Below are positions 11,543 through 34,075 of a stretch of 62,841 nucleotides of DNA, piece after piece. Each line of letters begins with the position of its first letter. The first letter of the stretch is position 1. The notes under the pieces are model-generated. The model had not been told where the DNA came from. It worked only from the letters and a program-made list of their open reading frames with translations, and did not search any database. The DNA is from Clostridiales bacterium DTU073 (lineage in GTDB: Bacteria; Bacillota; Peptococcia; DRI-13; DTU073), in contig LFSF01000038.1 of NCBI GenBank assembly GCA_001512665.1, positions 104,793 to 167,633 of the forward strand. Reading direction: 5' to 3'. The position numbers were made by a program, and so were the translations under genes.

Positions 11543-12517
11543 CTAATCACCTACTCGATAAATGTCCTGCCAGGTAATTAACATCAAATCATTACGAGTA
11601 ACATGAAGTTGATTAACTAAACGGACTGCCTGCTGACGAATAGCTTTTTCAATTAAATTTCTTACTAATCGGGCATTACCATTGTGTTCTTTCCTGATAA
11701 ATATTTTTTTAATTAAAACACTTTCTAACTCCTTTTTTGCCTCCTGCGACAATTGATATTCTCTTTTATGTAACATTTGTTCGGCTATAGCTAGTAATTC
11801 TACAATACTATAGTCTGGAAAATCGATATGTAAAGGAAAACGAGAACGTAATCCGGGATTTGTTTCCAAAAACCACGTCATTTCCTCTTTATATCCGGCG
11901 AGAATAAGAATTAAATTATCTTTATAATCTTCCATAGCTTTAACTATGGTATCTATCGCTTCTTTACCAAAATCTTTTTCTCCGCCACGGGCTAAAGAAT
12001 AAGCCTCATCAATAAAAAGGACACCACCTAAAGCATTTTTGATTTGTTCACGGGTTTTTATCGCAGTATGACCGATATATTCGCCTACCAGATCTGCTCT
12101 CTCTAACTCTATAACATGTCCCTTTTTCAACAGCCCCATTTCTTTAAAAAGATTACCCATAATGCGAGCAACAGTAGTTTTCCCCGTACCGGGATTACCG
12201 CTGAAAATAGCATGAAGAACTAGTGTATCATTTAATAAATTCTCTTTTTCTCTTCTCCTTTGAATCTCTATATAGGCCTGCAATTCATAAATTAGACGCT
12301 TCACCGAATCTAACCCGATTAATGAATCTAATTCCTGTAAAATTTCCCTAACTTTTTCGGAACGTTGAGCATTCAGATTATTTTGAGCTTTGTTTTTTTC
12401 CGTATTTTTATATAAATAGAGACCGGACGTATTCTTTGAGGTTTTCACCGGATTATTAATGACCAAATGGGGTGTTTCAACCTTATGTTGCGGATGAAAA
12501 GAAAGACGAATAGACAA
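11543..12517 (-). CDS. spoVK: Stage V sporulation AAA+ ATPase SpoVK
   Basis: GNPGTGKT, RADLVGEYIGHTA, FIDEAYSL, NPGLRSRF; follows hfq; TTG start inferred. Confidence 0.9.
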   Translation of the reverse strand: MSIRLSFHPQHKVETPHLVINNPVKTSKNTSGLYLYKNTEKNKAQNNLNAQRSEKVREILQELDSLIGLDSVKRLIYELQAYIEIQRRREKENLLNDTLVLHAIFSGNPGTGKTTVARIMGNLFKEMGLLKKGHVIELERADLVGEYIGHTAIKTREQIKNALGGVLFIDEAYSLARGGEKDFGKEAIDTIVKAMEDYKDNLILILAGYKEEMTWFLETNPGLRSRFPLHIDFPDYSIVELLAIAEQMLHKREYQLSQEAKKELESVLIKKIFIRKEHNGNARLVRNLIEKAIRQQAVRLVNQLHVTRNDLMLITWQDIYRVGD

Positions 12518-12630
12518 ACCTACCACCACCTTCAATGAAACAAATCACTTAACAATTCAAATTATGCGAAATAAAGCTAATGGTGCTTGGTAGGTTTGTA
12601 TCAGTCTTATTAAATTATATTTTGAGATCT

Positions 12631-12873
12631 TTACTGCGCTTCATTAGAGTCTTGGTTAAAATTAATCGCTTTTAAAGGTGAAATAGTAGAAATAGCATGT
12701 TTATAAATTAATTGCTGCTTCCCTTCTACGTCTAAAATAACTGTAAAATTATCAAAGCCCTTAACACTTCCTTTTAACTGAAAGCCATTAATTAAAAAGA
12801 TGGTTACGGGCACATTTTCCTTCCTAATTTGATTTAAAAAATTATCCTGCAGATTAATTTGTGGTTTAGTCAC
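12631..12873 (-). CDS. hfq: RNA chaperone Hfq
   Basis: [27 protein letters not shown]. Confidence 0.97.
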
Positions 12874-12929
12874 TCAAATCCCTCCAATTTTCAGTTCGAA
12901 ACTCAAAAACTTCATTTATTTATTCTCCA

Positions 12930-13871
12930 TTATAGACTAATAGTCCTGCCAATAAAATCCATTATTTCTGAAGTCAATTTTGCAAAATTTTGCTCAAGAT
13001 GGTCAGCAGCAAACCATTTTATTCTCTGGTCACGTCTAAACCATGTTAATTGGCGTTTAGCATAACGCCTTGTTTCCTGTTTAATTAATGCCACTGCTTT
13101 CTGTAAATCATACTCTCCGTTTAAATAACCACATAATTCACGATAACCAATACCTTGCATTGCAGGTAAATCCGGAGAGTATCCTTTTGCCAAAAGCCCT
13201 TTCACCTCCTCTAATAATCCTTCAGCCATCATTTGCTCAACTCGCTTCTCAATTCTTTGATATAACAAAGAACGATCTAAAGTTAAACCGATCATAGCTA
13301 AATTATATAAGGATTCTTTTTGCTTTGTTGCTTTTTTATTTTCGGAAATAGGTTTTCCTGTTAGATGATAATATTCAAGGGCTCTGCAAACTCTTTTTCG
13401 GTCATGTGGATGGATTTTCTCAGCAGAAACCGGATCAACATTGCGTAAAAGCTGAAATAAATGATCTTCACCTTTTTCCTCTGCTAAGGCGTAAAGCTTA
13501 CGCCGATAGGGCAAAATATCTTTTTGTTCAGTAAACTCATAAGGATCGATCACTGCTTGGATATATAAACCTGTACCGCCTACTAAAAAAGGAAGCTTGC
13601 TTTTACCCGCAATCTCAGAAATTTTATTTCTGGCCAAGCTTTGAAAATCTGCCACACTAAAAGGCTCATCAGGGTTTTTAATATCAAGAAGATGATGAGG
13701 GATTCCTTTAGTTTTTGCAGGTTTTATCTTAGCTGTACCAATATCCATGCCCCGATAAATCTGCATCGAATCAGCAGAGATGATTTCTCCACCCATTTTT
13801 GCTGCAAGTTCAACAGCAATTTTTGTCTTTCCGGATGCCGTGGGTCCAAGAATTACCACTAAAGGATGCAA
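12930..13871 (-). CDS. miaA: tRNA dimethylallyltransferase
   Basis: GPTASGKT, DSMQIYRGMDIGTAK, VGGTGLY, YAKRQLTW. Confidence 0.97.
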   Translation of the reverse strand: MHPLVVILGPTASGKTKIAVELAAKMGGEIISADSMQIYRGMDIGTAKIKPAKTKGIPHHLLDIKNPDEPFSVADFQSLARNKISEIAGKSKLPFLVGGTGLYIQAVIDPYEFTEQKDILPYRRKLYALAEEKGEDHLFQLLRNVDPVSAEKIHPHDRKRVCRALEYYHLTGKPISENKKATKQKESLYNLAMIGLTLDRSLLYQRIEKRVEQMMAEGLLEEVKGLLAKGYSPDLPAMQGIGYRELCGYLNGEYDLQKAVALIKQETRRYAKRQLTWFRRDQRIKWFAADHLEQNFAKLTSEIMDFIGRTISL

Positions 13872-13925
13872 CCTTAATCTCCCTTCTTTCTATTTTTACC
13901 ATTTTTACTTCATTTTATTTTTACT

Positions 13926-15812
13926 TTAGAAACGATGAAAAGCTTTAAGTATTTCTCGATTAGTAATTTTAAAGATAATCGGTCGCCCATGCGGACAAGT
14001 TAAAAAATTTTGGGCATGACTTAAATCGTACAGAAGATGTTCCATCTCCTGCAAAGAAAGTTTTGTATTAGCTTTAACTGCCATTTTACAGGAGGAATGG
14101 ATGAGAAATTCTTTTTTGATATCAAGTGCATCAGTTTTACCTTTACTGTTTTCCAGATGTTCGAGTAATGAATAAAAGAAATCTTGTGGTTCTTCCTGAA
14201 CACCTGAGGGAATGGCTCTGAGGAGATAACTTCTCGGACCAAAATGTTCAATGATAATCCCTAAATCCACTAAAGGCAAAATATACTTGAGTACAGCTTC
14301 CTCTTCTAAAAGAGTAAAATGCAATGCTACAGGATTTAGCAGTACCTGACTTTCCAAGCCCCCCTTAGTTGCTTGTTCCTGTAGTCTTTCAAAAATCACC
14401 CTTTCGTGAGCGACGTGCTGGTCAATTATATATAAACCTTCGTCCCCTTCCACTAAAATAAAAGTTTTCCTAAATTGGCCAATCACTTGACATGATTGCA
14501 AGTTAAGGGTTTGTGTTTGATTTTCCTTAACTTCGACCTTAGCATCGGTTCTAATTGCAGTCTCAGGACTAGCTGCAGTTATAGCTTCAGTACCGGTCTC
14601 AATTACAGTTGTATTATTTGTTACCGAGATAAGCGCATCATTAGGTTGAGCGGGAAGAGGCTCAGGCTGCTCCCAAGCATAAAAATTATGAAAGATTTCC
14701 TGCACACCCTTGCCTATACTCCCTCTACTGTCTTTAGTTTCCGCTTTTATTTCACTTTTAGTTTTAGCTTTTGTTTCAGAAACCTCTAAAAACTCCTCCG
14801 GTTCGATAATATACCGAGGTATTTTTTGCTGTTTGATTAATTCTTCCTGAAGAATGATACATAATTCTTTTACTACAAGAGGATTACGCAGTCTCACTTC
14901 TAATTTACTGGGATGTACATTTACATCAATAGATGATGGGTCTAAAGAAAGATTAAGAACACAAAGAGGAAACAAACCCTTAGGAAGAAGATTTTGGTAG
15001 GCCTCTTCCACAGATTTGCTTAACTCTTTAGCATATACACGCCGTTGATTAATAAAAAAGTGCATTGCTTTTCTATTGGTTCGATGATAAGTAGGTAAGG
15101 TAATATACCCGGAAACCTTACCACATGACAGTTCTTCATTAACCTTAATCAAAGCTTCATTTACATTATTGCCATAAAAATATTCCAACAAATCAGGATG
15201 CGACATAATTCCTGTCGTATTTAGAACCTCTTTTCCATCGCGAAGTAAGCGAAAATCTATTTCAGGATGACTTAGGGAAAATTGCATCATTAATTCGTGA
15301 ATCAATCCACACTCATATTTTTCGCTGCGTAAAAATTTTTTACGGGCAGGAGTATTAAAAAATAAATCAGAAACAATAATCGTTGTCCCAACAGGAGTTC
15401 CGACCGGTTCCAATACAGGATCTTGATCACCGGCAACGGAAAGTTTAACCCCGTAATCAGACGTATGTTCTCTTGTTAGTATTTCAACTTTTGCTACAGA
15501 GGTGATACTGGCCAAGGCTTCACCCCGAAAGCCTAAACTTTGTAATCTGTCCAAATCGCTTATATTCTTAATTTTACTGGTAGCATGACGTTTAATGGCC
15601 ATAATTACATCTTCTTTAGACATACCACAACCATCATCAATAACTTTAAGCAGTTCCAATCCGCCATTGATTATTTCCACTACTATTTTTTTTGTACCGG
15701 CATCTAAAGAATTTTCCACCAGCTCCTTTACTACAGAAGCCGGTCTCTCAATTACTTCGCCTGCAGCGATTTGATTGGCAGTTAATTCATCAAGAAGGTG
15801 TACCTTGGACAC
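13926..15812 (-). CDS. mutL: DNA mismatch repair endonuclease MutL
   Basis: IAAGEVIERP, GFRGEAL, DQHVAHER endonuclease motif, CPHGRP; GTG at 15812 follows a GGAGG RBS. Confidence 0.97.
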   Translation of the reverse strand: MSKVHLLDELTANQIAAGEVIERPASVVKELVENSLDAGTKKIVVEIINGGLELLKVIDDGCGMSKEDVIMAIKRHATSKIKNISDLDRLQSLGFRGEALASITSVAKVEILTREHTSDYGVKLSVAGDQDPVLEPVGTPVGTTIIVSDLFFNTPARKKFLRSEKYECGLIHELMMQFSLSHPEIDFRLLRDGKEVLNTTGIMSHPDLLEYFYGNNVNEALIKVNEELSCGKVSGYITLPTYHRTNRKAMHFFINQRRVYAKELSKSVEEAYQNLLPKGLFPLCVLNLSLDPSSIDVNVHPSKLEVRLRNPLVVKELCIILQEELIKQQKIPRYIIEPEEFLEVSETKAKTKSEIKAETKDSRGSIGKGVQEIFHNFYAWEQPEPLPAQPNDALISVTNNTTVIETGTEAITAASPETAIRTDAKVEVKENQTQTLNLQSCQVIGQFRKTFILVEGDEGLYIIDQHVAHERVIFERLQEQATKGGLESQVLLNPVALHFTLLEEEAVLKYILPLVDLGIIIEHFGPRSYLLRAIPSGVQEEPQDFFYSLLEHLENSKGKTDALDIKKEFLIHSSCKMAVKANTKLSLQEMEHLLYDLSHAQNFLTCPHGRPIIFKITNREILKAFHRF

Positions 15813-15838
15813 AACACACCTGCCCCTCCTTTTTTGCA

Positions 15839-17164
15839 TCATTTACCAGCTTGTTCCATTAAATATTGATCATTCTTTTTATCTTGTAAGTAATAGTAAT
15901 CATATACTTTTTCCTTTGTTTCCTTTTGCCACAATTCATAGCCAAATTCTTCACATTTTGAGCAAGCATATATGGGAATACTAATTCCTTTAATACCACA
16001 ACTCCTGCTAAAAGTTTTATCACTTTCTGAAATCACTTGATAAATACCGGGACAATCCGGACAATAATAAACAAATTCTTGCTGCTGCTCGCGAATATTG
16101 TCTGTATCATAATAAATATTACGGCTGCGATTATAAAGCATCTTTCCGGAAAACAGTTGTTCTTTGTCGGGAGGATTTGCAGAAAACATATTTTGCCAAT
16201 AGTTTATTAATCTGTCTATGTAGTTAGTAGTATCAGCAGTTTGCTTAAGCTCTTCCCGCCGATAATAGGGTTCAACAACCTTACTGTAATCTTGACCTGC
16301 CAAAGCCAGCAGAATACCTAAATTTACATACGGTAGAGCTGTTTCAATGGCATAACCACCTTCTAAGACAGCCAAATCAGGTTTTAATTCTTCAGTGATT
16401 TTCGCATATCCTTGGCTGCTAACCAGCATATTGGCAAGAGGATCAGTGAAATGATTATCCTGACCGGCGGAATTAATTACTAATTCCGGAGCAAATTTTT
16501 TTAATAACGGGCGGACTATTTTCCGCCACACTTTAAGAAAACCCTCATCAGTTGTACGCGGTGGGAGCGGTATATTAATATTGCTTAAATATGCACCCGG
16601 TCCACCTGCTTCTTCAACAAATCCTGTACCCGGATAAAGGGTGCGTCCATCCTGATGCAACGAAATAAATAAAACGTCAGGGTCATGATAAAAAATATCC
16701 TGTGTACCGTCACCATGATGTACATCCGTATCAACTATGGCAATCTTTCTGATGTTATATTTCTTGCGGAGGTATTCAACAAGAATAGCTTCATTATTGA
16801 TATTGCAAAAACCCCTGTTGCCATGCACAACCCGCATAGCATGATGCCCGGGGGGACGAACTAAAGAAAAGCCATTTTTTATTTCCCCCGCCATAAGTGC
16901 ATCACCTAATTTAAGCGCACTTCCGGCAGAAATAAAATGTGCAGAGGTAGTTTGTGTTTCCACATTAGGTACACAAAAATGCACTCTTTGAATATCCTTT
17001 TCTTCAGCAAGGCGAGGTGTATATTCAACAATATTACTATTGTCCAGAATACCTTCTTCAAAAATCTGATCTCTGGTATATAAGAGACGCTCTTCCCGTT
17101 CAGGATGAGTGGGGCTAATAGCCCAATCAAAGGCAGGGAAAAAGACTAATCCTGTCTTACCCAT
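15839..17164 (-). CDS. Histone-deacetylase-family amidohydrolase with C-terminal CxxC...CxxC extension
   Basis: RPPGHHA, GFC, DTDVHHGDGTQ, SAGQD and LEGGY motifs; tail contains CPDC and CSKC. Confidence 0.9.
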   Translation of the reverse strand: MGKTGLVFFPAFDWAISPTHPEREERLLYTRDQIFEEGILDNSNIVEYTPRLAEEKDIQRVHFCVPNVETQTTSAHFISAGSALKLGDALMAGEIKNGFSLVRPPGHHAMRVVHGNRGFCNINNEAILVEYLRKKYNIRKIAIVDTDVHHGDGTQDIFYHDPDVLFISLHQDGRTLYPGTGFVEEAGGPGAYLSNINIPLPPRTTDEGFLKVWRKIVRPLLKKFAPELVINSAGQDNHFTDPLANMLVSSQGYAKITEELKPDLAVLEGGYAIETALPYVNLGILLALAGQDYSKVVEPYYRREELKQTADTTNYIDRLINYWQNMFSANPPDKEQLFSGKMLYNRSRNIYYDTDNIREQQQEFVYYCPDCPGIYQVISESDKTFSRSCGIKGISIPIYACSKCEEFGYELWQKETKEKVYDYYYLQDKKNDQYLMEQAGK

Positions 17165-18833
17165 CTGACCTCTCCTCCTTAATAAAGGTTCTGATCCCAG
17201 GAACTGTTTGCAAACCTATTTGAAAAATTCTCCCTTTGGTCTGCCAGTCTCGAACTATATTAAATCCTTCTTCATACAAAGTTTCAATAGGCATATCTTT
17301 GGCCAAATTCCATTCTTTTGCTGTAGCTTTAAAAACCATTAAGAAAAATTTTTTAGCTTCTTCCACATGTTTTAGCGGTTGAAGCAATGTACCCTGTAAA
17401 CCGCCAATATTCGTAGAATAAGTCTTTCTCTCCGTATCTGCAAAAAAATCCACTTTTAAAGTAGGTTTTGCTAACGCCGCACCAATCGCATTAGCTACCG
17501 CATAATGCTGCGGAATAATGACCTGCCATTTTTTCTTTTCTGCCCAATACTTACCGATGCCCCCAGACGGTCCTCCCAAACAAAGCAAAGTTTGCGGGCG
17601 TTGCTTCTTGGCCGCTAGAACTTGCCAAATCCGATAAGCAGGTTCCTCCTCCCAAGCATGAAACATAGCTTCTAATTTCGCTTCTAACTGTTCTACAAAC
17701 AACTCTAAAACCTGTTCGGAAAATTGTTCAGGGGTAAGTTGTAATTCTGCAGCAATTGCTTCGACCTGTTCTTTAATCAAATCCCGGGAAGCAATTGTAC
17801 TATAACCACTATACACCAGAATATCAGTAACAGTAAGCGTGGGACCACCTACACATAATGCTGGCCCCTGTCTTTTCGTAAAACAAATTTTCCCCTCCTC
17901 TATGGTTATAGAGGTGTCTCCACCTAATTCTAGAGAAGCTACGGCTAGTGAACGCACCGGAAGAGGATAATTATTAATAGATGCCCCTCTTTCCGCCAAG
18001 AGTGGTTTTCCCCGTAAAAGCAATGCTAAATCTGTAGTTGTACCGCCAATATCAACTACAACAGCCGTCGCTTTTTCATCTAAACAAGCCAGCGAACCGA
18101 GCGCACTGGCCGCGGGTCCGGAAAAGATTGTTTCTAAGGGATAACGCAGGGCAACATTAATAGGTAATGTTCCTCCGTCAGCTTTTAACATATAAACAGG
18201 GCAATCTAAACCTAACTTGGTGAGAGTATTATTTATATATTTTTGAAAAACATGACTGGCCTCCCGTGTTGCCAGAGTATAGAAAGCACCATTTGCTCTG
18301 CGTACCCAATTCAATAAACCACTTACTTCATAACTAGCTAAAACCTTCACTTGAGGATAGTATTTTTGAATATACTCTACGATTTGCTTCTCTAAGGAAG
18401 AATTTCTTTGACTAAATTTACAAGCAACAACTAAATGGTGAATGTTCTTTTCTAAAAAATATGTACAGGCTTCCTTTACTTCATTTAAATCTACAGACTC
18501 TATTACTCTGCCTCGATAGTCAACCGCACCTCGTAACACTCTATAAGGGCCGGCAAAGTTAAGCTGTTCTGGATTAGCACCCGGGCCGGGAAGCAAAAGC
18601 ATCCCCGTTTGCGGTAATCTTTCTTGTGTAATCAAATTAGTGATTAAAGTAGTACTCAAGGTCACCTGTTCTACCTTTTGCGGATCAAGGTCCGTTAATA
18701 TTTGTTTTAAAGCTTCTTCTATGGAAAACGAGATTTCTTCATCTGTCCGAACTTTAACTGCTTTAATTACTTCCTGTCCGGAGATAACTACTCCGTCAGT
18801 AAAAGTACCGCCAATATCAATACCTATTAACAA
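17157..18833 (-). CDS. Hydantoinase/oxoprolinase A-subunit-like ATPase (ASKHA fold)
   Basis: GIDIGGTFTD, SGPAAS, DIGGTTTD, GP..GGP.TVTD and ANAIGAA motifs. Confidence 0.9.
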   Translation of the reverse strand: MLIGIDIGGTFTDGVVISGQEVIKAVKVRTDEEISFSIEEALKQILTDLDPQKVEQVTLSTTLITNLITQERLPQTGMLLLPGPGANPEQLNFAGPYRVLRGAVDYRGRVIESVDLNEVKEACTYFLEKNIHHLVVACKFSQRNSSLEKQIVEYIQKYYPQVKVLASYEVSGLLNWVRRANGAFYTLATREASHVFQKYINNTLTKLGLDCPVYMLKADGGTLPINVALRYPLETIFSGPAASALGSLACLDEKATAVVVDIGGTTTDLALLLRGKPLLAERGASINNYPLPVRSLAVASLELGGDTSITIEEGKICFTKRQGPALCVGGPTLTVTDILVYSGYSTIASRDLIKEQVEAIAAELQLTPEQFSEQVLELFVEQLEAKLEAMFHAWEEEPAYRIWQVLAAKKQRPQTLLCLGGPSGGIGKYWAEKKKWQVIIPQHYAVANAIGAALAKPTLKVDFFADTERKTYSTNIGGLQGTLLQPLKHVEEAKKFFLMVFKATAKEWNLAKDMPIETLYEEGFNIVRDWQTKGRIFQIGLQTVPGIRTFIKEERSDG

Positions 18834-18836
18834 AAA

Positions 18837-21527
18837 TCATCCCTCCTTTTTGGCAGAATCTTTCAGCACTTTCTGCTGTAATTCATAAAATAGGTTTAAA
18901 GCCTCAATAGGGGTCATTGTTAACAAATCCGGTGCTAAGATCGCACTTTCCAAGGCGTTTTTTTCCGCTCGCAATTCTTTGATTATCTCTTGGAGCTTCC
19001 TAAGCTCGTCCTGGCTTTGGGTATGATTAGGTGATGCATCTCCCTCTGCTTTAAAGCTCACATTTTTTATGTTCTGGACATACAGGGTTTTGTTACCGTT
19101 TTTTTCTTTCTCAATACTACTTAGAACTTCTTTAGCTCGATCCACAACCTGTTGTGGAAGCCCGGCCAATCTGGCTACCTGAATCCCATAACTTCGATCA
19201 GCGGCACCGGAAACAATTTTATGTAAAAAAATAATCTCTTCTCCTATTTCTTTTACTGATACAGAATAATTTTCTACATTTTCATACAAACTACTTAAAC
19301 GGGTTAATTCATGATAATGAGTAGCAAAAAGAGTTTTTGCTTTAAGTTTTTTAATCAAATATTCACTCACTGCCCAAGCCATACTTAGACCGTCATGGGT
19401 ACTGGTTCCCCTTCCCACTTCATCCAAGATTACCAGGCTATAAGGAGTAGCATGATTCAAAATATTGGCAACCTCATTCATTTCCACCATAAAGGTACTT
19501 TGTCCACTACGCAAGTCATCATTGGCACCTACTCGGGCAAAAACACGATCGCGAATAGAGAGCACAGCTTTCCTCGCCGGAACAAAGCTGCCCATTTGTG
19601 CCATAATCACAGCTAAAGCCACACTGCGGCAATAAGTACTTTTTCCGCCCATATTTGGACCGGTAATCACATAAAAATCATTTTGCTTAGGCATATCCAG
19701 ATCATTGGGGACATAAGCGGTAGCGGTCAAAACCTTTTCTACTACCGGATGCCTCAAATCTAGAAATTGTAGGTAATTTTCCTCTTTATCCAAAAGCTGT
19801 GGCCGTACATAGGAATTCTGAACGGCTACTTCAGCTAATGATTGCAAAACATCTACTTGTGCAAGAATTTCCGAGGTTTTTTGCACGCGCTGCGCTTCTT
19901 TGCCCAATTCATTAAGAAGATTTTTGTAGATTTCTTCCTCAAGGGGAATTAACTTTTCTTCTGCCCCAAGAACTTGACTTTCTAAGCGTTGTAATTCTTC
20001 AGTTATATACCTCTCCCCATTAGCCAGGGTCTGTTTTCTTTGAAAATAATCCGGAACAAGTTCTAAATTCGCCTTCGTTACCTCAAAATAGTAACCGAAC
20101 ACTTTATTAAAACCGATTTTTAAGGATTTTATGCCTGTTTTTTCTTTTTCCTCACTTTCTAAACGGGCAATCCATTCCTTCCCTTTTTCACTGGCTTCCC
20201 TTAAATCGTCGATTTGTTGATTGTATCCCCTTTTGAAAACACCACCGTCTTTTAAATTATAGGGAGGATTCTCTACCAAAGCTGCATCTAATAAAGAGAT
20301 CACATCAATTAAAAGGTCTAAATTATTCTTCAGAGTAGTAAGATATTGTGAATGTTTAAATACATCTAAAAGCTCCTTAAGCTCCGGCAATACCTGCAAA
20401 GAGTTTTTCAAGGAAAGTAATTCCTGAGGATTAGCTCGTCCATACAAAACACGAGTCATTAATCTTTCCAAATCATAAATCTTTTCTAAACAGCTGCGAA
20501 TTTTTTGCCTTTCAGACCAACTTTCACTTAATACCTCAACTGCATCCAAACGGCTTTCCAGTGTTTTTATGTCGGTCAACGGATTCTGCAGCCAAAGCTG
20601 TAAAAGTCTTGCTCCCGCAGCAGTTTTCGTCTTATCCAATAAATCTAATAAGCTGCCTTTACGTTCATTGGAGCGTATTGTTTTGGTTATTTCTAAATTT
20701 CGGAAAGTTGTCGCATCCAAAGCTAAGTATCTTTCCGGATAATAAAACTGTAGTTTTTTTATCTGCTGCGGGGCAGCCTTTTGGGTATCTGTTAAATACC
20801 TTAAAATTGCTCCGGCGCAAGATATTGCTTGTCTCTGATTTTGACAACCACAGGCCTCCAAAGAAGATACCTTAAAGTGATTGAGAATAATTTGCCTTGC
20901 ACTTAAGTAGGCAAACGCCTCTTGATGATATGGTGTAACCAAAACTCCATCTAAATAAGGCCATATTTGCTCGAAGTTTGACTCAGCACCCTCCGGATAG
21001 AGTATTTCCACAGGGTGTAAGCGCAATAATTCATCCCGCAGAACTTCAAATCCTTCAGAACCGCTTAGTTCACTGAGCCAAAACTGACCGGTTGAAACAT
21101 CACAAAAAGCCAATCCCCAAACATTCTGCTGGCGTGATAAAGCGACTAAATAGGAACTGGTTGTTTCTTGTAATAGTGGAGAATCAATGGCTGTACCCGG
21201 AGTAACAACCCTAATTACCTCGCGCTTGACAATTCCTTTACATTGTTTAGGGTCTTCCATTTGCTCACAAATGGCCACCTTATAACCTTTTTTAATCAGC
21301 TTAGCCAAATAATTATCTACCGCATGATAAGGTACTCCACACATGGGAACACGGTCCTTCTTGCCAGCATCGCGGCCGGTTAAAGTAATATCTAATTCCC
21401 GGGAAGCTAATAACGCATCCGGTCCGAACATTTCATAAAAATCGCCTAAACGAAAGAAAAGAATAGCATCAGGATACTGCTCCTTTATTTTCTGATACTG
21501 TTTCATCATAGGGGTTTGCCCTAACAT
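18837..21527 (-). CDS. mutS: DNA mismatch repair protein MutS
   Basis: TPMMKQY, GDFYEMF, TGPNMGGKST, DEVGRGT, SYGIQVA. Confidence 0.98.
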   Translation of the reverse strand: MLGQTPMMKQYQKIKEQYPDAILFFRLGDFYEMFGPDALLASRELDITLTGRDAGKKDRVPMCGVPYHAVDNYLAKLIKKGYKVAICEQMEDPKQCKGIVKREVIRVVTPGTAIDSPLLQETTSSYLVALSRQQNVWGLAFCDVSTGQFWLSELSGSEGFEVLRDELLRLHPVEILYPEGAESNFEQIWPYLDGVLVTPYHQEAFAYLSARQIILNHFKVSSLEACGCQNQRQAISCAGAILRYLTDTQKAAPQQIKKLQFYYPERYLALDATTFRNLEITKTIRSNERKGSLLDLLDKTKTAAGARLLQLWLQNPLTDIKTLESRLDAVEVLSESWSERQKIRSCLEKIYDLERLMTRVLYGRANPQELLSLKNSLQVLPELKELLDVFKHSQYLTTLKNNLDLLIDVISLLDAALVENPPYNLKDGGVFKRGYNQQIDDLREASEKGKEWIARLESEEKEKTGIKSLKIGFNKVFGYYFEVTKANLELVPDYFQRKQTLANGERYITEELQRLESQVLGAEEKLIPLEEEIYKNLLNELGKEAQRVQKTSEILAQVDVLQSLAEVAVQNSYVRPQLLDKEENYLQFLDLRHPVVEKVLTATAYVPNDLDMPKQNDFYVITGPNMGGKSTYCRSVALAVIMAQMGSFVPARKAVLSIRDRVFARVGANDDLRSGQSTFMVEMNEVANILNHATPYSLVILDEVGRGTSTHDGLSMAWAVSEYLIKKLKAKTLFATHYHELTRLSSLYENVENYSVSVKEIGEEIIFLHKIVSGAADRSYGIQVARLAGLPQQVVDRAKEVLSSIEKEKNGNKTLYVQNIKNVSFKAEGDASPNHTQSQDELRKLQEIIKELRAEKNALESAILAPDLLTMTPIEALNLFYELQQKVLKDSAKKEG

Positions 21528-21584
21528 TCTCCGTCGTTCTCCTCCTTTCTTTTCTTTCTCTTCTCATTTTACTAGCTTCTTGTT

Positions 21585-22904
21585 TTATTTTAATTTCCCT
21601 TTTAAAACCCAAGTCTGAGGATCAGTTATTTCTACATCTACAAATTTACCAATCAACTCTTTCGAGCCCGCAAAGAGTACAGTTTTATTCGTTGCTGTTC
21701 GACCTTCTAAGATTGCCTGGTCTTTTTTACTGCAGCCATCTACTAAAACTTCAACAACTTGTCCTTCCAACTGAGAATTTATCGCTAAACTGATTTCGTT
21801 TTGTACTTGCATAAGCTGCTGTAAGCGACTTTTCTTTACAGCCAATGGAATCTGGTCTTTCATTTTGGCCGCCAGAGTCCCGGTACGAGCTGAATAAATA
21901 AAAGTGAACGCCGAATCAAAACGCAACTCCTTCACTAACTCTATAGTATCTTGAAAATCTTCATCAGTTTCACCCGGAAAACCGACAATAATATCCGTAG
22001 TAATACTTGCCGAAGGAACATATTCTCGTACTGTTTCCACTAATTCACGGTAATGCTCCCTTGTATATCCGCGGTTCATCTTTTGCAAAATTTTATTGCT
22101 CCCTGATTGCAAAGGAAGATGAAAATGTGGGCACACTTTAGCTAACCCACTGATTGTTTTAATTAAATCAACATTAAAATCACGTGGGTGTGAAGTCAGA
22201 TAACGAATTCTCTTTAAGCCCTCAATCGCATTAACTTGCTCTAATAAATGAGCAAAAGTCACGGGTGGATCAAAGGTCTTGCCATAGGAGTTAACATTTT
22301 GTCCTAAGAGCATGACCTCTACAACCCCGTCTGCAACCAGGTCTTTTATTTCTTTGAGAATATACTGCGGTTCCCGACTTTTTTCCCGCCCCCGTACATA
22401 AGGAACAATACAATATGTGCAAAAATTATTACAACCATAAGTAATGTTTACCCGAGCTTTAAAAGGCACTTCCCGTACAGTCGGTAAGTCCTCTTTTATC
22501 TCCTGCAAATCAGCTAAAATCTGAGTCTGCGGAGTTTTCGTTTCTTCTAACTTTTTGATGAGCTCAGGTAATTGATCCAGATTATGCGTACCAAAAATCA
22601 AATCCACATGTGGTGCACGACGATGTATCTTTTCTGCCATTTTTTCTTGTTGCACCATACAGCCACATATCCCGATAATCAAGTCTGGTTTTTCGGCTTT
22701 TAATTCTTTTAATTCTCCAACCTGGCTCAAAACTTTATTCTCGGCTTTTTCCCGAATACAACAGGTATTAAAAAGAATAATGTCTGCATCGAATAATTCA
22801 GCGGCGGGAACATATCCTGTTTTTTGTAAAATACCGGCTAATGTTTCGGAATCTCTTTCATTAGCCTGACAACCAAAAGTCAAAATATAATACTTTTTGT
22901 CCAT
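21585..22904 (-). CDS. miaB: tRNA ms2i6A37 methylthiotransferase MiaB
   Basis: TFGCQAN, NTCCIREKAE, radical-SAM CNNFCTYC, C-terminal TRAM. Confidence 0.95.
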   Translation of the reverse strand: MDKKYYILTFGCQANERDSETLAGILQKTGYVPAAELFDADIILFNTCCIREKAENKVLSQVGELKELKAEKPDLIIGICGCMVQQEKMAEKIHRRAPHVDLIFGTHNLDQLPELIKKLEETKTPQTQILADLQEIKEDLPTVREVPFKARVNITYGCNNFCTYCIVPYVRGREKSREPQYILKEIKDLVADGVVEVMLLGQNVNSYGKTFDPPVTFAHLLEQVNAIEGLKRIRYLTSHPRDFNVDLIKTISGLAKVCPHFHLPLQSGSNKILQKMNRGYTREHYRELVETVREYVPSASITTDIIVGFPGETDEDFQDTIELVKELRFDSAFTFIYSARTGTLAAKMKDQIPLAVKKSRLQQLMQVQNEISLAINSQLEGQVVEVLVDGCSKKDQAILEGRTATNKTVLFAGSKELIGKFVDVEITDPQTWVLKGKLK

Positions 22905-22943
22905 AGATGCTACCTCATTTTATTTTTCTTATAGTATACCACA

Positions 22944-23801
22944 TTAAGTACAGAGTAGTTGTTTTATTCGCGGTAGCATCTCAACTGTTGCTTTATAACC
23001 GCAGTTAATAAGATAATCTATTTTACTAAAATCAGCTACCTGAACATAATTAAACTCAGGAGAAATAATTAAGTCTGCAGAAGCAATACTCGGCCTGGTA
23101 ATCTGATAAACCATTAAATCAATAGACTGAAGAGCAATTTCCAAAATATTATCAACATAAGGTACAGGTTTACCGCTATAACTCAGATTTACCGCAACTA
23201 CCTTTTTTGCTCCCATCATCCGGGTAATTTCCACAGGTAAATTAGCCCTTACCCCACCATCTACTAACCTCATCCTTTTTATTATTTTAGGCTTAAAAAT
23301 ACCGGGGAGAGAAATACTAGCTCTAATAGCTTCAGATAAAGTCACATCATGAAGAAAAACATAATCGTTTCTCATTAACAAACGATTTGGTAAGGAAGTA
23401 AACACCACAATATTTGTATTATTAATATCCACAGCGGTTATTGCTAAAGGCATTTTAATCTTATTTATTTTAATACCTTTAGTTAAATTATATAGATAAC
23501 GTTCAAAATAATCACCTTGAATCAATCCGCTGGTTGTTGGCTTCCCGGAAAACAAAATATTAATTAAAGATGAAAATATCCCCATAAAATCAACATCAAA
23601 TTGTTTTTTACTGATTTGTTTACCAATTAACCTAAGCTCTTGAGGAGTATATCCATACGCATACAAACCGGCAACAATAGAACCGGCACTTGTACCGGAA
23701 ATAAAAGCAGGCTTAATCTTTGCTTCATGTAAAGCTTGTAAAACGCCGATATGAGCACATCCGCGCACACCACCACCTGAAAGGACCAGTCCTAAGCTCA
23801 T
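22944..23801 (-). CDS. Patatin-like phospholipase
   Basis: SGGGVRG, GTSAG and DGG motifs. Confidence 0.9.
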   Translation of the reverse strand: MSLGLVLSGGGVRGCAHIGVLQALHEAKIKPAFISGTSAGSIVAGLYAYGYTPQELRLIGKQISKKQFDVDFMGIFSSLINILFSGKPTTSGLIQGDYFERYLYNLTKGIKINKIKMPLAITAVDINNTNIVVFTSLPNRLLMRNDYVFLHDVTLSEAIRASISLPGIFKPKIIKRMRLVDGGVRANLPVEITRMMGAKKVVAVNLSYSGKPVPYVDNILEIALQSIDLMVYQITRPSIASADLIISPEFNYVQVADFSKIDYLINCGYKATVEMLPRIKQLLCT

Positions 23802-24954: not shown

Positions 24955-26478
24955 TTATATTGCTTGAATATGTGAACTTGAATTTGCTATGTCTGTCTTT
25001 TCAACATATGCTATATCTTTGCACAATACTTTAATCTCTTTTACTTCTGGATCTTCTGTCCCTTGCAGTTCCGCATTTTCTTTCCTCAAGATATTGACAT
25101 AATCGATGATTTCACGAGTAATCCTTTCTCCCGGACAAAGAATGGGAATACCGGGAGGATAAGCCATAATTGATTCTGCACTAATTTCTCCTTCTGACTC
25201 ATTAAGAGGAATAGTTTTAACTTCAGCATAAAATGCCGCCCGCGGAGAAATAACCATTTCCGGTATTTCCGGCAAGGGAATAAAATATTTGAAGACATTC
25301 TTTACTTTTCTTTCATTTGCAATTTCTCTAAACGCATTAATCAGTTTCGTAAGACTCTGGCGGTCATCACCTAAACTAACCAATGATAAAACATTAAAGA
25401 GGTCAGAGAGCTCTACTTGGATCTGATATTTCTTGCGAAGAATTTTTTCCACTTCAAAACCGGAAAGGCCTAAGGCTTTTACATTAACCACGATTTTAGT
25501 GGGGTCAAAGGCGTAACATCCCGGTTGCTGCAAAACCTCTTCCCCCATAACGTATAACCCGTCAATTTTATTTAATTCTTCACGAGCCCACAAAGACAAA
25601 TCATAAATTTCGCTAATAAGCTTCTCGCCCTTTTCTGCCAACTGTTTACGAGCAATATCCAAAGAGGCCAGAAGAATATATGAAGGACTGGTTGTCTGAG
25701 TTAAGTTTAGCACCGCCTTTACTTTTTGAGGATTAACTAAATCTCCCTGATGAAGCAACATAGAACTTTGAGTTAACGAACCGCCAAGCTTATGTGTACT
25801 GCTTGCGGACAAGTCTGCTCCGGCTTCCATAGCTGAGACAGGTAAACGGGAATCAAATTTCAAGTGAGCACCATGCGCTTCATCCACTAAAACCGGTTTT
25901 CCAAAAGCATGAGCAAGATTAACAATAGTTTGTAACTCAGAAGCAATCCCATAATAGGTCGGATTAATTAAAAAGACAGCTTTAGCCTCAGGGTGTTTTT
26001 TCAAAGCTTTGGCAACTGTTTCCGGGGTTACTCCCATGGCAATACCCAAAAAATCATCTATTTCCGGTTCAATGTAGATGGGTTCAGCACCACTGAGAAT
26101 AATACCGCCAATAGCAGATTTATGAGCATTACGCGGGATAATGATCTTATCACCGGGTTCACAAACACTCATTATCATCGCTTGAATACCATAGGTAGTT
26201 CCATTTACTAAAAAATAGGCATTATCCGCCCCATAAAGCTGAGCGGCCAAATCTTGTGCTTCCTTTATCACACTTACAGGATTACAAATATTATCCAAAT
26301 CCTCCATACAGGTCAAATCAATTTTTAAACAATCTGCTCCTAATAACTTTTCTAATTCTGGATTACCTTTACCTTGCTTATGACCTGGTACATGAAAAGA
26401 GGTGGTACCGTCCAAGGAATAATTTTTTAAAGCATTATAAATTGGTAACCGACTTTGATTAAATGTTTGATTGAGCAT
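24955..26478 (-). CDS. speA: Arginine (Orn/Lys/Arg) decarboxylase, PLP fold I
   Basis: FHVPGHK, LVNGTT, DEAHGAH, STHK, TTSPSY, YPPGIP. Confidence 0.85.
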   Translation of the reverse strand: MLNQTFNQSRLPIYNALKNYSLDGTTSFHVPGHKQGKGNPELEKLLGADCLKIDLTCMEDLDNICNPVSVIKEAQDLAAQLYGADNAYFLVNGTTYGIQAMIMSVCEPGDKIIIPRNAHKSAIGGIILSGAEPIYIEPEIDDFLGIAMGVTPETVAKALKKHPEAKAVFLINPTYYGIASELQTIVNLAHAFGKPVLVDEAHGAHLKFDSRLPVSAMEAGADLSASSTHKLGGSLTQSSMLLHQGDLVNPQKVKAVLNLTQTTSPSYILLASLDIARKQLAEKGEKLISEIYDLSLWAREELNKIDGLYVMGEEVLQQPGCYAFDPTKIVVNVKALGLSGFEVEKILRKKYQIQVELSDLFNVLSLVSLGDDRQSLTKLINAFREIANERKVKNVFKYFIPLPEIPEMVISPRAAFYAEVKTIPLNESEGEISAESIMAYPPGIPILCPGERITREIIDYVNILRKENAELQGTEDPEVKEIKVLCKDIAYVEKTDIANSSSHIQAI

Positions 26479-31768: not shown

Positions 31769-34075
31769 TTAATTATCTATCGCTTTAGGATTTCTGTAGT
31801 CGTAAAAGTCTTTGTTAGGCTCATATTTCTCACCATTAAAGGTAAAGGTTACAGTATCCTTTACAGATTCATATAGTGGTTTGAAATCTTTAACCCAACC
31901 TTTTAATAATTCTTGAGGTTGCGATTCGATGTTAAAAACGATGTCCAACAAATGAGAACTTTCTTTGTTTGGCACAAACTTATAGCTATTCTGATAAAAA
32001 TTATAATTAGGCTTGCCCAGATTAGATTTACCAAGTCCATCATAATCTTCCCAATATAATCCTTCATCAAAAATACATAAAAACTGATTCTCTTGATACT
32101 GATAGATTTTCATATCCTTGTAATAAGGACCGAAAGCAGGCGAACCAAAACCTTCATCTCTGATTAATATTTCTTGTCCACCGTCTGTATCAATATCAAT
32201 TAATTCGCAACTCACTTTATAGTTCTCACAATTAAATACTAACTTGTAGTCTTTTTTATTATTTTCAAAATCTGTCTTTTCCTCTAATACGGCAACCAGA
32301 TGAGTACCATATTGTTCGTCAAGATTACAATAAATAATGCCATGGATTAAATAAGCCTTTTTAAATTTTCCATTTGAAAAAATATCCAGAGGCTTAACAT
32401 CTTCGATCGTCATTCTGTTGATTAAAACATAAGGGTGATCCTTCTCTTGATTGGTAAAGAGATTAGCCAATAAATTCTTTAAAGTATCAGTCTCTAAGTT
32501 AGGTATATGCTCATAATCAATTTTAGTATAATTTTTAGTGTATTTTTTCGTGTTGGTTTTCTCCGGCTGTTTATAATTATAAACTTCTTTATTGGGTACA
32601 TATTCGCTACCATTAAAAGAAAAAACTACTGTGTCTTTTACCGGTTCATAAAATAAATCATAACCTTCTTTTTCCCATTTTCCCCACAATTCCGGAGGTT
32701 GGGTTTCAATCTTGAACACGAGGTCCAATAAATGAGGATTTTCTTTATTCGGCACAAACTCATAGCTATTTTTATACGTATAGGGAGTCGTAATCCCATG
32801 AATGTCGGTATAATCGGGTTCTATAAAATAGACGAGCTCATCCCCAAATAAACTTTGCTCAAAGATAAGTGAATATTCATCTTTCTTATTTTGATATCTA
32901 TAGATGCGCATATTTTGATCATGTTTTTCTTGCGAATAGGAAAAGACAGTTTGTCTTTTAACTACTACTTCCGGTATACCGTCTGCATCAATGTCAATAA
33001 ATTCATAAATATTATCCTCCTTTTTTTGACTTAAACATCCCAACAACTTGACAAACTTGCAAAAAGGCCGATCATCACCGTAACATTCTGTGCATTTTTT
33101 GTTTTCATCGAAAAAGATGGTGATTGTATTTTCTTTTTGCTCATCTTCCGTATTCTCAGGCAGTAACTCTTTATATGCTATTTGGACGAAATAACCATTT
33201 GACCCCTCAGGTAATAAATTAGCCAATTGTTCAATTTCTTCTAATGTCAGACCTTCCCCATTAGTTTTTTTAAGGAAAACCCGCAAGCGATCCTGATAAT
33301 ATAAAGTAGCATAATGACTGCCTTTTAAATCCAACAGATAGGGTAAGTTAGACTTGCTTAAAATCTCGTTAAATTGGTTAACCACCGCACTTTCCTCACT
33401 AGAAGCATAAATCTTTAGAAAATCTGTTCTCCCTATTTTGTCCTCCAAACCTTGTGCTTTAGGGTCATTCTTGAACTTTAAAACAGTTTCCCCTGCCCCG
33501 TGTTTAATTACAATTCGCCCCTCCTGTTTTTTAGGTAATAAATTCAAAAGCTGTTCCACTTCATCTACAGTAAGATTCCCCTCATTAGTTTTCTCTAAAT
33601 ATAAGCGCAAATAATTATATTTATTGCGACGTTCATAATACAAAGTATCATAATGACTATTTTCTAAATCCAAAGAAAAAGGTAATTTTGATTCCATTAA
33701 ATCCTGATTAGCTTGAGTAACCTTTGGGCTTTCATGAGTAGCCGCATATTTTTGAGCATTTTTCTCCCCTATCTCACTTTTTAAATCCATTACGTATGGA
33801 TATAGACAAGCTGTTACTAAAATTAACACCAATGCTAACGCAACAATCCGCCCATTCTTAATAAACCTCTTTCCTATAAAAAGATAGATTGCCACACCGG
33901 CTACCGTTGCTATTCCGATAAATATTGCCAACGGTATATTAGGAGAAAAAAGGTCAAGCATAAAAATACTGAAACCATAAAGATAAATACTAAAAGCAAA
34001 AAAGGCAAAAGAACACAAAACCCCAATAACAACGGCTAAAAGCAAGTATAAGATAATTCCCAACTTTCTCTTCAA
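31769..34075 (-). CDS. Large membrane-anchored hypothetical protein with two pairs of internal repeats
   Basis: 768-aa ORF; 3 N-terminal TM segments; duplicated domains; DxDxDG motifs. Confidence 0.8.
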   Translation of the reverse strand: MKRKLGIILYLLLAVVIGVLCSFAFFAFSIYLYGFSIFMLDLFSPNIPLAIFIGIATVAGVAIYLFIGKRFIKNGRIVALALVLILVTACLYPYVMDLKSEIGEKNAQKYAATHESPKVTQANQDLMESKLPFSLDLENSHYDTLYYERRNKYNYLRLYLEKTNEGNLTVDEVEQLLNLLPKKQEGRIVIKHGAGETVLKFKNDPKAQGLEDKIGRTDFLKIYASSEESAVVNQFNEILSKSNLPYLLDLKGSHYATLYYQDRLRVFLKKTNGEGLTLEEIEQLANLLPEGSNGYFVQIAYKELLPENTEDEQKENTITIFFDENKKCTECYGDDRPFCKFVKLLGCLSQKKEDNIYEFIDIDADGIPEVVVKRQTVFSYSQEKHDQNMRIYRYQNKKDEYSLIFEQSLFGDELVYFIEPDYTDIHGITTPYTYKNSYEFVPNKENPHLLDLVFKIETQPPELWGKWEKEGYDLFYEPVKDTVVFSFNGSEYVPNKEVYNYKQPEKTNTKKYTKNYTKIDYEHIPNLETDTLKNLLANLFTNQEKDHPYVLINRMTIEDVKPLDIFSNGKFKKAYLIHGIIYCNLDEQYGTHLVAVLEEKTDFENNKKDYKLVFNCENYKVSCELIDIDTDGGQEILIRDEGFGSPAFGPYYKDMKIYQYQENQFLCIFDEGLYWEDYDGLGKSNLGKPNYNFYQNSYKFVPNKESSHLLDIVFNIESQPQELLKGWVKDFKPLYESVKDTVTFTFNGEKYEPNKDFYDYRNPKAIDN

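Follow-up and report, generated by a model that had tools for sequence, protein, structure and literature searches.

The 62,841-nt window analysed here (Clostridiales bacterium DTU073, contig LFSF01000038.1, positions 104,793 to 167,633) holds two adjoining genes, one for a HyuA-like ATPase and one for a histone deacetylase (HDAC)-like protein, set between mutS and mutL. The block reads miaB–mutS–HyuA-like–HDAC-like–mutL–miaA–hfq on the minus strand (Table 1), and both this order and the spacings given in an earlier note, made from the sequence alone, agree with the coordinates: the HyuA-like gene starts at a TTG 3 nt past the mutS stop, with a purine-rich ribosome-binding site upstream, the two genes share an 8-nt overlap, and the GTG start of mutL lies 26 nt past the HDAC stop (an alternative in-frame ATG at 15842 overlaps that stop). 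The note had seen no obvious terminator, and a terminator scan of the minus strand likewise shows nothing terminator-like from 12000 to 23600. Metatranscriptome contigs (four runs, three studies) cover parts of all block genes, one bridging HDAC and mutL and another HyuA and HDAC, though strand and a single transcript are not readable from such contigs and DNA is a possible source. Hydantoinase B (HyuB; PF02538) is absent from the window, as the note had stated, and also from the whole 1.67-Mb genome (96.4% complete), so that a dedicated partner of this kind elsewhere in the genome, which would have spoken against the note's proposal of a new enzyme pair, was not found. The same genome contains a single PF01968 gene and a single PF00850 gene, and no PxpA (PF03746). 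As set out below, the pair is a real, widespread and undescribed two-gene enzyme module.

Co-occurrence, adjacency and fusion of the two genes

The distribution of the pair was followed in an evenly drawn phylum sample of 351 genomes and in a class sample of 72; related genomes are not independent, and the co-occurrence counts therefore describe a pattern and carry no statistical test. Within the class, 29 of 72 genomes carry the HDAC and the identical 29 carry the ATPase orthologue (genome G067 has an ATPase fragment only, at a contig end). Across the phylum each gene occurs in 141 genomes and both occur in 140, the two exceptions sitting at contig ends, and each gene is always single-copy. 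The ATPase gene lies directly upstream of the HDAC gene in 137 of the 139 phylum loci with room for it, in 75/77 named GTDB loci (Desulfotomaculaceae, Syntrophomonadaceae, Thermincola, Desulfobacteraceae, Desulfovibrionaceae, Methanosarcina and Methanosaeta) and in 72/75 metagenome loci; in the non-adjacent cases the partner was found elsewhere in the same genome. The survey that the earlier note had called for thus shows that the two genes do travel together. In most bacterial loci the stop and start codons of the pair overlap, and the pair persists in genomes as small as 1.3 Mb.

A natural fusion joins both domains in one chain of 1152–1202 aa (P0121 and P0122, in a cluster with MBC7341852.1); these two proteins share a low-complexity linker and are counted as one event. 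HyuB occurs in 6 of the 72 class genomes, only two of which are among the 29 pair-bearing ones, and in each of these it stands beside its own separate canonical HyuA.

Beyond the phylum, the full-length HDAC is present in 30/151 genomes of the phylum of G076 (about 20% of the Desulfobacterota sample) and in 11/151 genomes of the archaeal phylum of G075. The latter phylum also contains a sister HDAC of ~360 aa with a longer L2 loop and no Cys4 tail (32/151 genomes; 41–51% identical, loci L323–L338), and a shorter HyuA of ~480–530 aa lies directly upstream in 10 of 16 sampled sister loci. Neighbours of these sister genes include 8-oxoguanine glycosylase (L323, L331) and endonuclease V (L326, L332, L333 and L334, where the HyuA gene lies elsewhere). 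The Methanosarcinales HDACs (L016, L027–L066) carry an N-terminal extension (~520–545 aa in total) and group among Bacillota in a midpoint-rooted quick tree, a placement suggestive of transfer from bacteria.

Table 1. Block genes, the HDAC tail domain and speA, in window coordinates
Feature	Position	Strand	Remarks
miaB	21585-22904	-	
mutS	18837-21527	-	NCBIfam PRK05399/TIGR01070 above cut-off; flanking context, outside the module
HyuA/OplA-type ASKHA ATPase subunit, 558 aa	17157-18833	-	Pfam PF05378 and PF01968
HDAC/AcuC-fold zinc amidohydrolase (predicted), 441 aa	15839-17164	-	Pfam PF00850
C-terminal beta-sheet domain of the HDAC protein, ~residues 343-441	15839-16138	-	YDTD and CxxC...CxxC; predicted structural zinc site
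mutL	13926-15812	-	TIGR00585 above cut-off; flanking context, outside the module
miaA	12930-13871	-	
hfq	12631-12873	-	
speA	24955-26478		~6 kb upstream of the pair, past miaB, a patatin gene and one oppositely oriented gene

The ATPase and HDAC proteins

Conservation was scored on alignments of 80 orthologues of each protein. In the HyuA-like protein D6, D261, P240 and D268 are invariant, D13, K27 and T265 are at least 90% conserved, and both ASKHA phosphate loops (phosphate-1 and phosphate-2) are kept throughout. By alignment to CapA (PMC8453981, from the available part of that paper), CapA D11 and D295 correspond to D6 and D261, and D18, K32, P272, T299 and D302 to D13, K27, P240, T265 and D268; the same portion of the paper describes D11 and D295 mutants in which activity is nearly abolished. 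The structure model is confident (mean predicted local distance difference test, pLDDT, 92.8), and its top Foldseek matches are N-methylhydantoinase 9h03, acetone carboxylase beta, Apc and CapA (template modelling score, TM, 0.65–0.74); the 9H03 structure was deposited with dihydrouridine. Canonical HyuA subunits (~690 aa) have a C-terminal barrel domain that is missing from this protein, which is ~140 aa shorter and scores far below the curated profiles (CapA 72, ApcA 39 and ApcC 34 bits vs cut-offs of 1000, 1250 and 1500), with a weak similarity, under cut-off, to the MfnF-like family TIGR03123 (E 4e-4). The long helix of CapA that contacts CapB aligns to residues 368–403, ending in a conserved motif that sets the Bacillota and Methanosarcinales members apart. 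Profile comparison finds the ATPase and the HDAC subunit unrelated to each other.

Judged by its sequence, the HDAC gene encodes a true member of the classical zinc deacylase family and not an ApaH. The H107/H108 dyad, the zinc ligands D147, H149 and D236, and Y271 are invariant in 80/80 orthologues, and the L1 loop (residues 8–38) hardly varies all the way from archaea to Desulfovibrio, while the L2 loop is ~26 residues shorter than that of HDAC6 and 18 shorter than that of the archaeal sister HDAC. The protein carries RPPGHH and EGGY motifs, which the available text of PMC11532494 ties to robust acetyl removal. Its model (pLDDT 89.4) is closest in fold to Kdac1/HdaH (VIA Z 38.6, root-mean-square deviation (rmsd) 2.5, 322 residues aligned), and no NCBIfam equivalog matches it at E 0.01.

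The extra C-terminal region that the earlier note had pointed out is a constant part of this protein: its CPDC and CSKC are C368/C371 and C401/C404, which together with Y352-D353-T354 are invariant in 80/80 orthologues, and the tail is folded in the model. Among 1.84 billion representatives a search for this Cys4 tail gave 102 matches, and the six inspected were fragments or frameshifted forms of the same HDAC family. No convincing structural match emerged when the tail was searched inside the whole protein: the best for residues 342–440 was 1t6a_A (Z 6.8, rmsd 2.7, 74 aligned), and all Atlas matches stayed below 0.9. A role for the tail as an essential docking module was considered and rejected, as the tail-less archaeal HDACs pair all the same.

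Covariation between the chains offers one candidate contact. In 272 pairs (effective number of sequences 179), mean-field direct coupling analysis ranked HyuA V527–HDAC I273 first (z 11.2), with a swap of side-chain size between the two positions (V/I 172, I/V 62, I/I 26 and V/V 9) and independent pairs concordant 6:0. A tree-based test over 136,656 column pairs ranked the same pair 147th (z 3.8; null maximum 6.0 ± 0.6), and no column pair in that test exceeded the 95th percentile of the null. A hairpin at HyuA 524–535 packing against the HDAC loop after the catalytic Y271 is accordingly put forward as a lead only, a possible contact suggested by sequence covariation.

The mutSL position and other neighbours

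The arrangement mutS–pair–mutL recurs in 55 of the 126 phylum loci that leave enough sequence on each side, spanning 19 of 51 families, and in 33/63 named loci; the earlier note had allowed that it might be confined to this lineage, which these counts contradict. The remaining evidence separates the pair from its flanks in both directions. Other contexts account for 68 of the 126 phylum loci, and the named Methanosarcinales and Desulfobacterota loci all lie outside mutSL. Of five pair-less relatives searched, four have mutL, and in 4/4 of these mutS adjoins mutL in the same miaB–miaA block; five loci, three of them from one family (L030, L081, L107, L232 and L241), retain the pair flanked by miaB (or ymcA) on one side and miaA on the other, mutS and mutL both being missing there. 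Since pair-less relatives keep mutS–mutL and some loci keep the pair without them, pair and mismatch repair appear to have been lost independently. The placement thus probably reflects an old insertion in some Bacillota and not a mismatch-repair function. That the pair directly serves mismatch repair or MiaA/MiaB, e.g., by deacylating MutS or MutL, would fit the tight gene spacing and the breadth of the arrangement across families; we nevertheless consider it highly improbable, given the loci elsewhere, the five that hold the pair in a block emptied of mutS and mutL, the direct mutS–mutL junction in the pair-less relatives and the named Methanosarcinales loci, all without mutSL or mia neighbours. 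The acylated repair-protein substrate suggested in the earlier note is unlikely on the same grounds.

Genome G071 gave no mutL match at E 1e-30. In 30 related loci a putative S-adenosylmethionine methyltransferase gene (PF04445) separates mutL from miaA, and in 19 loci a ymcA-like gene stands between miaB and mutS; the present block has neither (13871–13926 for the former). Further along the window are a 768-aa open reading frame without a Pfam match at E 0.001 (31769–34075, minus strand) and a UPF0236 protein (PF06782; 29625–31007, minus strand), a family that we take to be transposase-like and of which a further copy adjoins the pair in locus L128.

Direct neighbours were compared across 328 loci, where 465 co-directional genes fell into 178 clusters. 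The largest besides mutS and mutL are EpmA (20), RlmN (9) and MurB (8), and transporters, regulators and catabolic genes do not recur among these neighbours. EpmA, the elongation factor P beta-lysine ligase, lies directly downstream of the HDAC gene in its 20 loci (incl. L014, L017, L021, L023 and L149, four of these being from Desulfobacteraceae or Deltaproteobacteria), and RlmN is likewise downstream of the HDAC in its nine. Nucleoside and repair genes are seen repeatedly, namely Ogg, endonuclease V, UvdE, RdgB/Ham1, RNase PH, adenine deaminase, nucleoside phosphorylase, HIT, thymidylate kinase, 2-thiouracil desulfurase, TrmO and RlmN. In a hand count, repair, nucleotide clean-up and RNA-modification genes outside mutSL made up ~12 of 80 Pfam-annotated clusters vs 6 of 61 annotated control genes lying 2.5 kb or more away (95 of the 112 control clusters were submitted), which is not distinguishable for a category picked after the data had been viewed and with E-value cut-offs that differed between the sets.

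A candidate ATP-dependent amidohydrolase and its relation to known systems

We hypothesize, at about even chances, that the two proteins form one two-subunit ATP-dependent amidohydrolase with a housekeeping role, in which the HDAC fold replaces HyuB. Acting first, the HyuA-type subunit would transfer phosphate to a small metabolite's amide or lactam, a chemically stable group; the activated amide would then be hydrolysed at the zinc site of the HDAC-fold subunit, in place of HyuB—ATP would activate a bond too stable for plain hydrolysis, and zinc-bound water would complete the cleavage. The simplest form of this proposal follows the scheme of CapAB and acetone carboxylase, with the HDAC-fold zinc site as the second station and the clean-up of a damaged or dead-end metabolite as the likely constitutive task. 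In those two enzymes, according to the available portions of the structural reports (PMC8453981, PMC5543143), the A-type subunit is the proposed site of phosphorylation, from which the substrate would travel through a 40 Å channel to a metal site on another subunit; because a separate metal subunit 40 Å away completes the reaction there, exchanging the metal subunit appears mechanically plausible. The idea that an HDAC takes the place of the B subunit, already voiced in the earlier note, draws support from co-occurrence, adjacency, fusion, intact catalytic residues and the absence of HyuB, and from these we infer the complex itself, phosphoryl transfer and the hand-over of an intermediate.

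The function is probably constitutive housekeeping, because the pair sits in unrelated housekeeping operons, because no transporter, regulator or downstream catabolic gene recurs beside it, and because it is kept in 1.3-Mb genomes and is dispensable in Desulfovibrio mutant libraries. In O. alaskensis G20, whose HDAC orthologue is 50% identical over 434 residues, Dde_2337 (the sole G20 gene described as a histone deacetylase) and both hydantoinase genes, Dde_2282 and Dde_0092, are listed as dispensable in the part of PMC4045070 available. The same holds for DVU2139, DVU2240 and DVU0029 in D. vulgaris Hildenborough (PMC10102598, in part), of which DVU2139 is presumably the HDAC orthologue, going by its length (439 aa) and annotation.

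Several points weigh against the amidohydrolase. HDAC folds cleave ordinary acyl-amides without ATP, and a requirement for the ATPase is assumed in the scheme. Two rumen Desulfovibrio genomes and O. alaskensis G20 have the two genes apart, D. vulgaris Hildenborough probably does too, 6 of the 16 archaeal sister loci are split, the fusion apparently stems from a single Clostridia lineage, and no substrate class stands out among the neighbours. AcuB–AcuC, moreover, provides a precedent for a nucleotide-binding partner that only regulates a bacterial HDAC (PMC13039410, available text).

On that precedent the HDAC could be a protein-lysine deacylase and the ASKHA protein its nucleotide-sensing regulator or ATP-driven activator, an explanation that we judge unlikely, though it is one of the two main alternatives. 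The RPPGHH and EGGY motifs with their link to acetyl removal favour it, as do acetyl-CoA synthetase genes directly upstream in three loci, an ADP-forming acyl-CoA synthetase downstream in three loci, and hosts such as Syntrophomonas that are rich in acyl-lysines (PMC9676460, in part). However, the ASKHA protein retains, beyond its nucleotide-binding loops, the full HyuA fold and the phosphoryl-acceptor-site residues, and the shortened L2 with a near-invariant L1 seems better suited to one small substrate or a fixed partner. Unlikely to nearly the same degree is that the two act one after the other in a two-step pathway without physical association, i.e., an ASKHA kinase or coupling enzyme and a deacylase. 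MfnF is a stand-alone ASKHA kinase or coupling enzyme, and the weak TIGR03123 similarity, the splitting of the pair in several genomes and the strict co-occurrence, which this explanation accounts for equally well, all agree with it; fusion in one lineage, overlapping stop and start codons that suggest 1:1 synthesis, and closest ATPase structures that are all subunits of complexes speak for a complex instead.

Two narrower proposals concern the substrate. Recycling of acetyl-polyamines or N-acetyl-beta-lysine, the former offered as an alternative in the earlier note, is improbable: speA lies near the pair, spermidine synthase is encoded in the genome, a carboxynorspermidine-synthase-like gene is directly downstream of the HDAC in L079, agmatine deiminase/CN-hydrolase genes follow in two archaeal sister loci and EpmA follows in its 20 loci, but the extended L2 loop that confers polyamine specificity on bacterial polyamine deacetylases (PMC11532494, available text) is missing, the gatekeeper Glu is replaced by L243, the genome has no AblB above cut-off, and simple acetamides need no ATP. 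A link to AblB or to the Wood-Ljungdahl acetyl-CoA synthase was rejected, neither AblB nor the synthase gene cdhC having been found in the genome. A third kind of 5-oxoprolinase, in anaerobes without PxpABC and OplA, is more improbable still; PxpA and HyuB are both missing from this genome, and CofE-like gamma-glutamyl ligase and glutamate synthase genes adjoin the pair in three loci, yet PxpA occurs in 12 of the 29 class genomes with the pair and in only 4 of the 43 without it, a distribution not complementary to that of the pair, and replacement of 5-oxoprolinase was rejected for this reason.

Returning to the ATP-dependent amidohydrolase, a damaged or modified nucleoside as substrate is a lead, the neighbour enrichment not being significant. 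As a speculative and rather doubtful version, the HyuA kinase subunit might dock on the rim of the HDAC zinc site and the ATP-powered HDAC open a stable cyclic amide of such a nucleoside. Similarly tentative is that the substrate would be dihydrouridine-like or of hydantoin type, and the task an ancient housekeeping clean-up of nucleosides in anaerobic bacteria and archaea. Such a function would explain the neighbours mutSL/miaAB, Ogg, endonuclease V, UvdE, RdgB and RlmN, those for adenine deaminase, nucleoside phosphorylase and 2-thiouracil desulfurase, and the crystallisation of the closest solved fold (9H03) with dihydrouridine.

No published description of the pair was found in literature searches, which mostly left out subscription papers, and the main text of GapMind 2026 (PMC13759103) contains neither ‘hydantoin’ nor ‘HDAC’ nor ‘AcuC’. 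If the proposed amidohydrolase is real, it would be the first HDAC-fold enzyme powered by an ATPase subunit (none was found in those searches) and the first HyuA subunit to work with a metal subunit other than HyuB, i.e., a new pairing of two well-studied folds. With ~40% of sampled phylum genomes, 20% of the Desulfobacterota sample and Methanosarcinales carrying the pair, it would represent an unrecognised housekeeping reaction in sulfate reducers, syntrophs and methanogens. It is also testable: O. alaskensis G20 and N. vulgaris Miyazaki have orthologues (UniRef100_B8DN42 in Miyazaki), mutant libraries cover both G20 and D. vulgaris Hildenborough, and a one-chain fusion occurs naturally.

Among known systems, the HyuA/HyuB enzymes—CapAB (PDB 6YRA), N-methylhydantoinase (7HK5, 9H03) and 5-oxoprolinase OplA—have the A-subunit fold in common with the pair (Foldseek TM 0.66–0.67, by query length), and the ATPase shares with CapA, as far as the available text describes it, both phosphate loops, the two activity-critical Asp and the substrate-site Pro and Asp. 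Unlike them, the pair has an A subunit ~140 aa shorter and without the barrel, an HDAC-fold partner, no HyuB in its genome and no recurrent transporter or catabolic cluster; it resembles these enzymes in its proposed working, yet, with HyuB missing, is not a member. The acetone and acetophenone carboxylases (AcxABC, Apc) likewise have an ASKHA phosphorylating subunit (TM 0.65–0.74), and the acetone carboxylase assembly includes a Cys4 zinc module (PMC5543143, in part), whereas the pair has no HyuB-type Mn subunit and bears its Cys4 domain fused to the HDAC; the gamma subunit of acetone carboxylase is not among the structural matches listed for the HDAC protein, in which the Cys4 domain was searched within the whole chain. 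With Kdac1, HdaH, AcuC and ApaH the HDAC shares fold, zinc ligands, His dyad, catalytic Tyr and the RPPGHH and EGGY motifs, but it differs in sequence (24–32% identity), in its L2, ~26 residues shorter than in HDAC6, in the added Cys4 domain and in its obligate ASKHA partner; the words ‘hydantoinase’, ‘Desulfo’ and ‘Methanosarcina’ are absent from the main text of PMC11532494. AcuB–AcuC of Bacillus offers a further parallel, a bacterial HDAC to which a nucleotide-binding protein encoded in its operon is bound (PMC13039410, available text); AcuB, however, is a CBS-ACT inhibitor as described there, whereas the partner in the present pair is an ASKHA enzyme with its catalytic residues retained.

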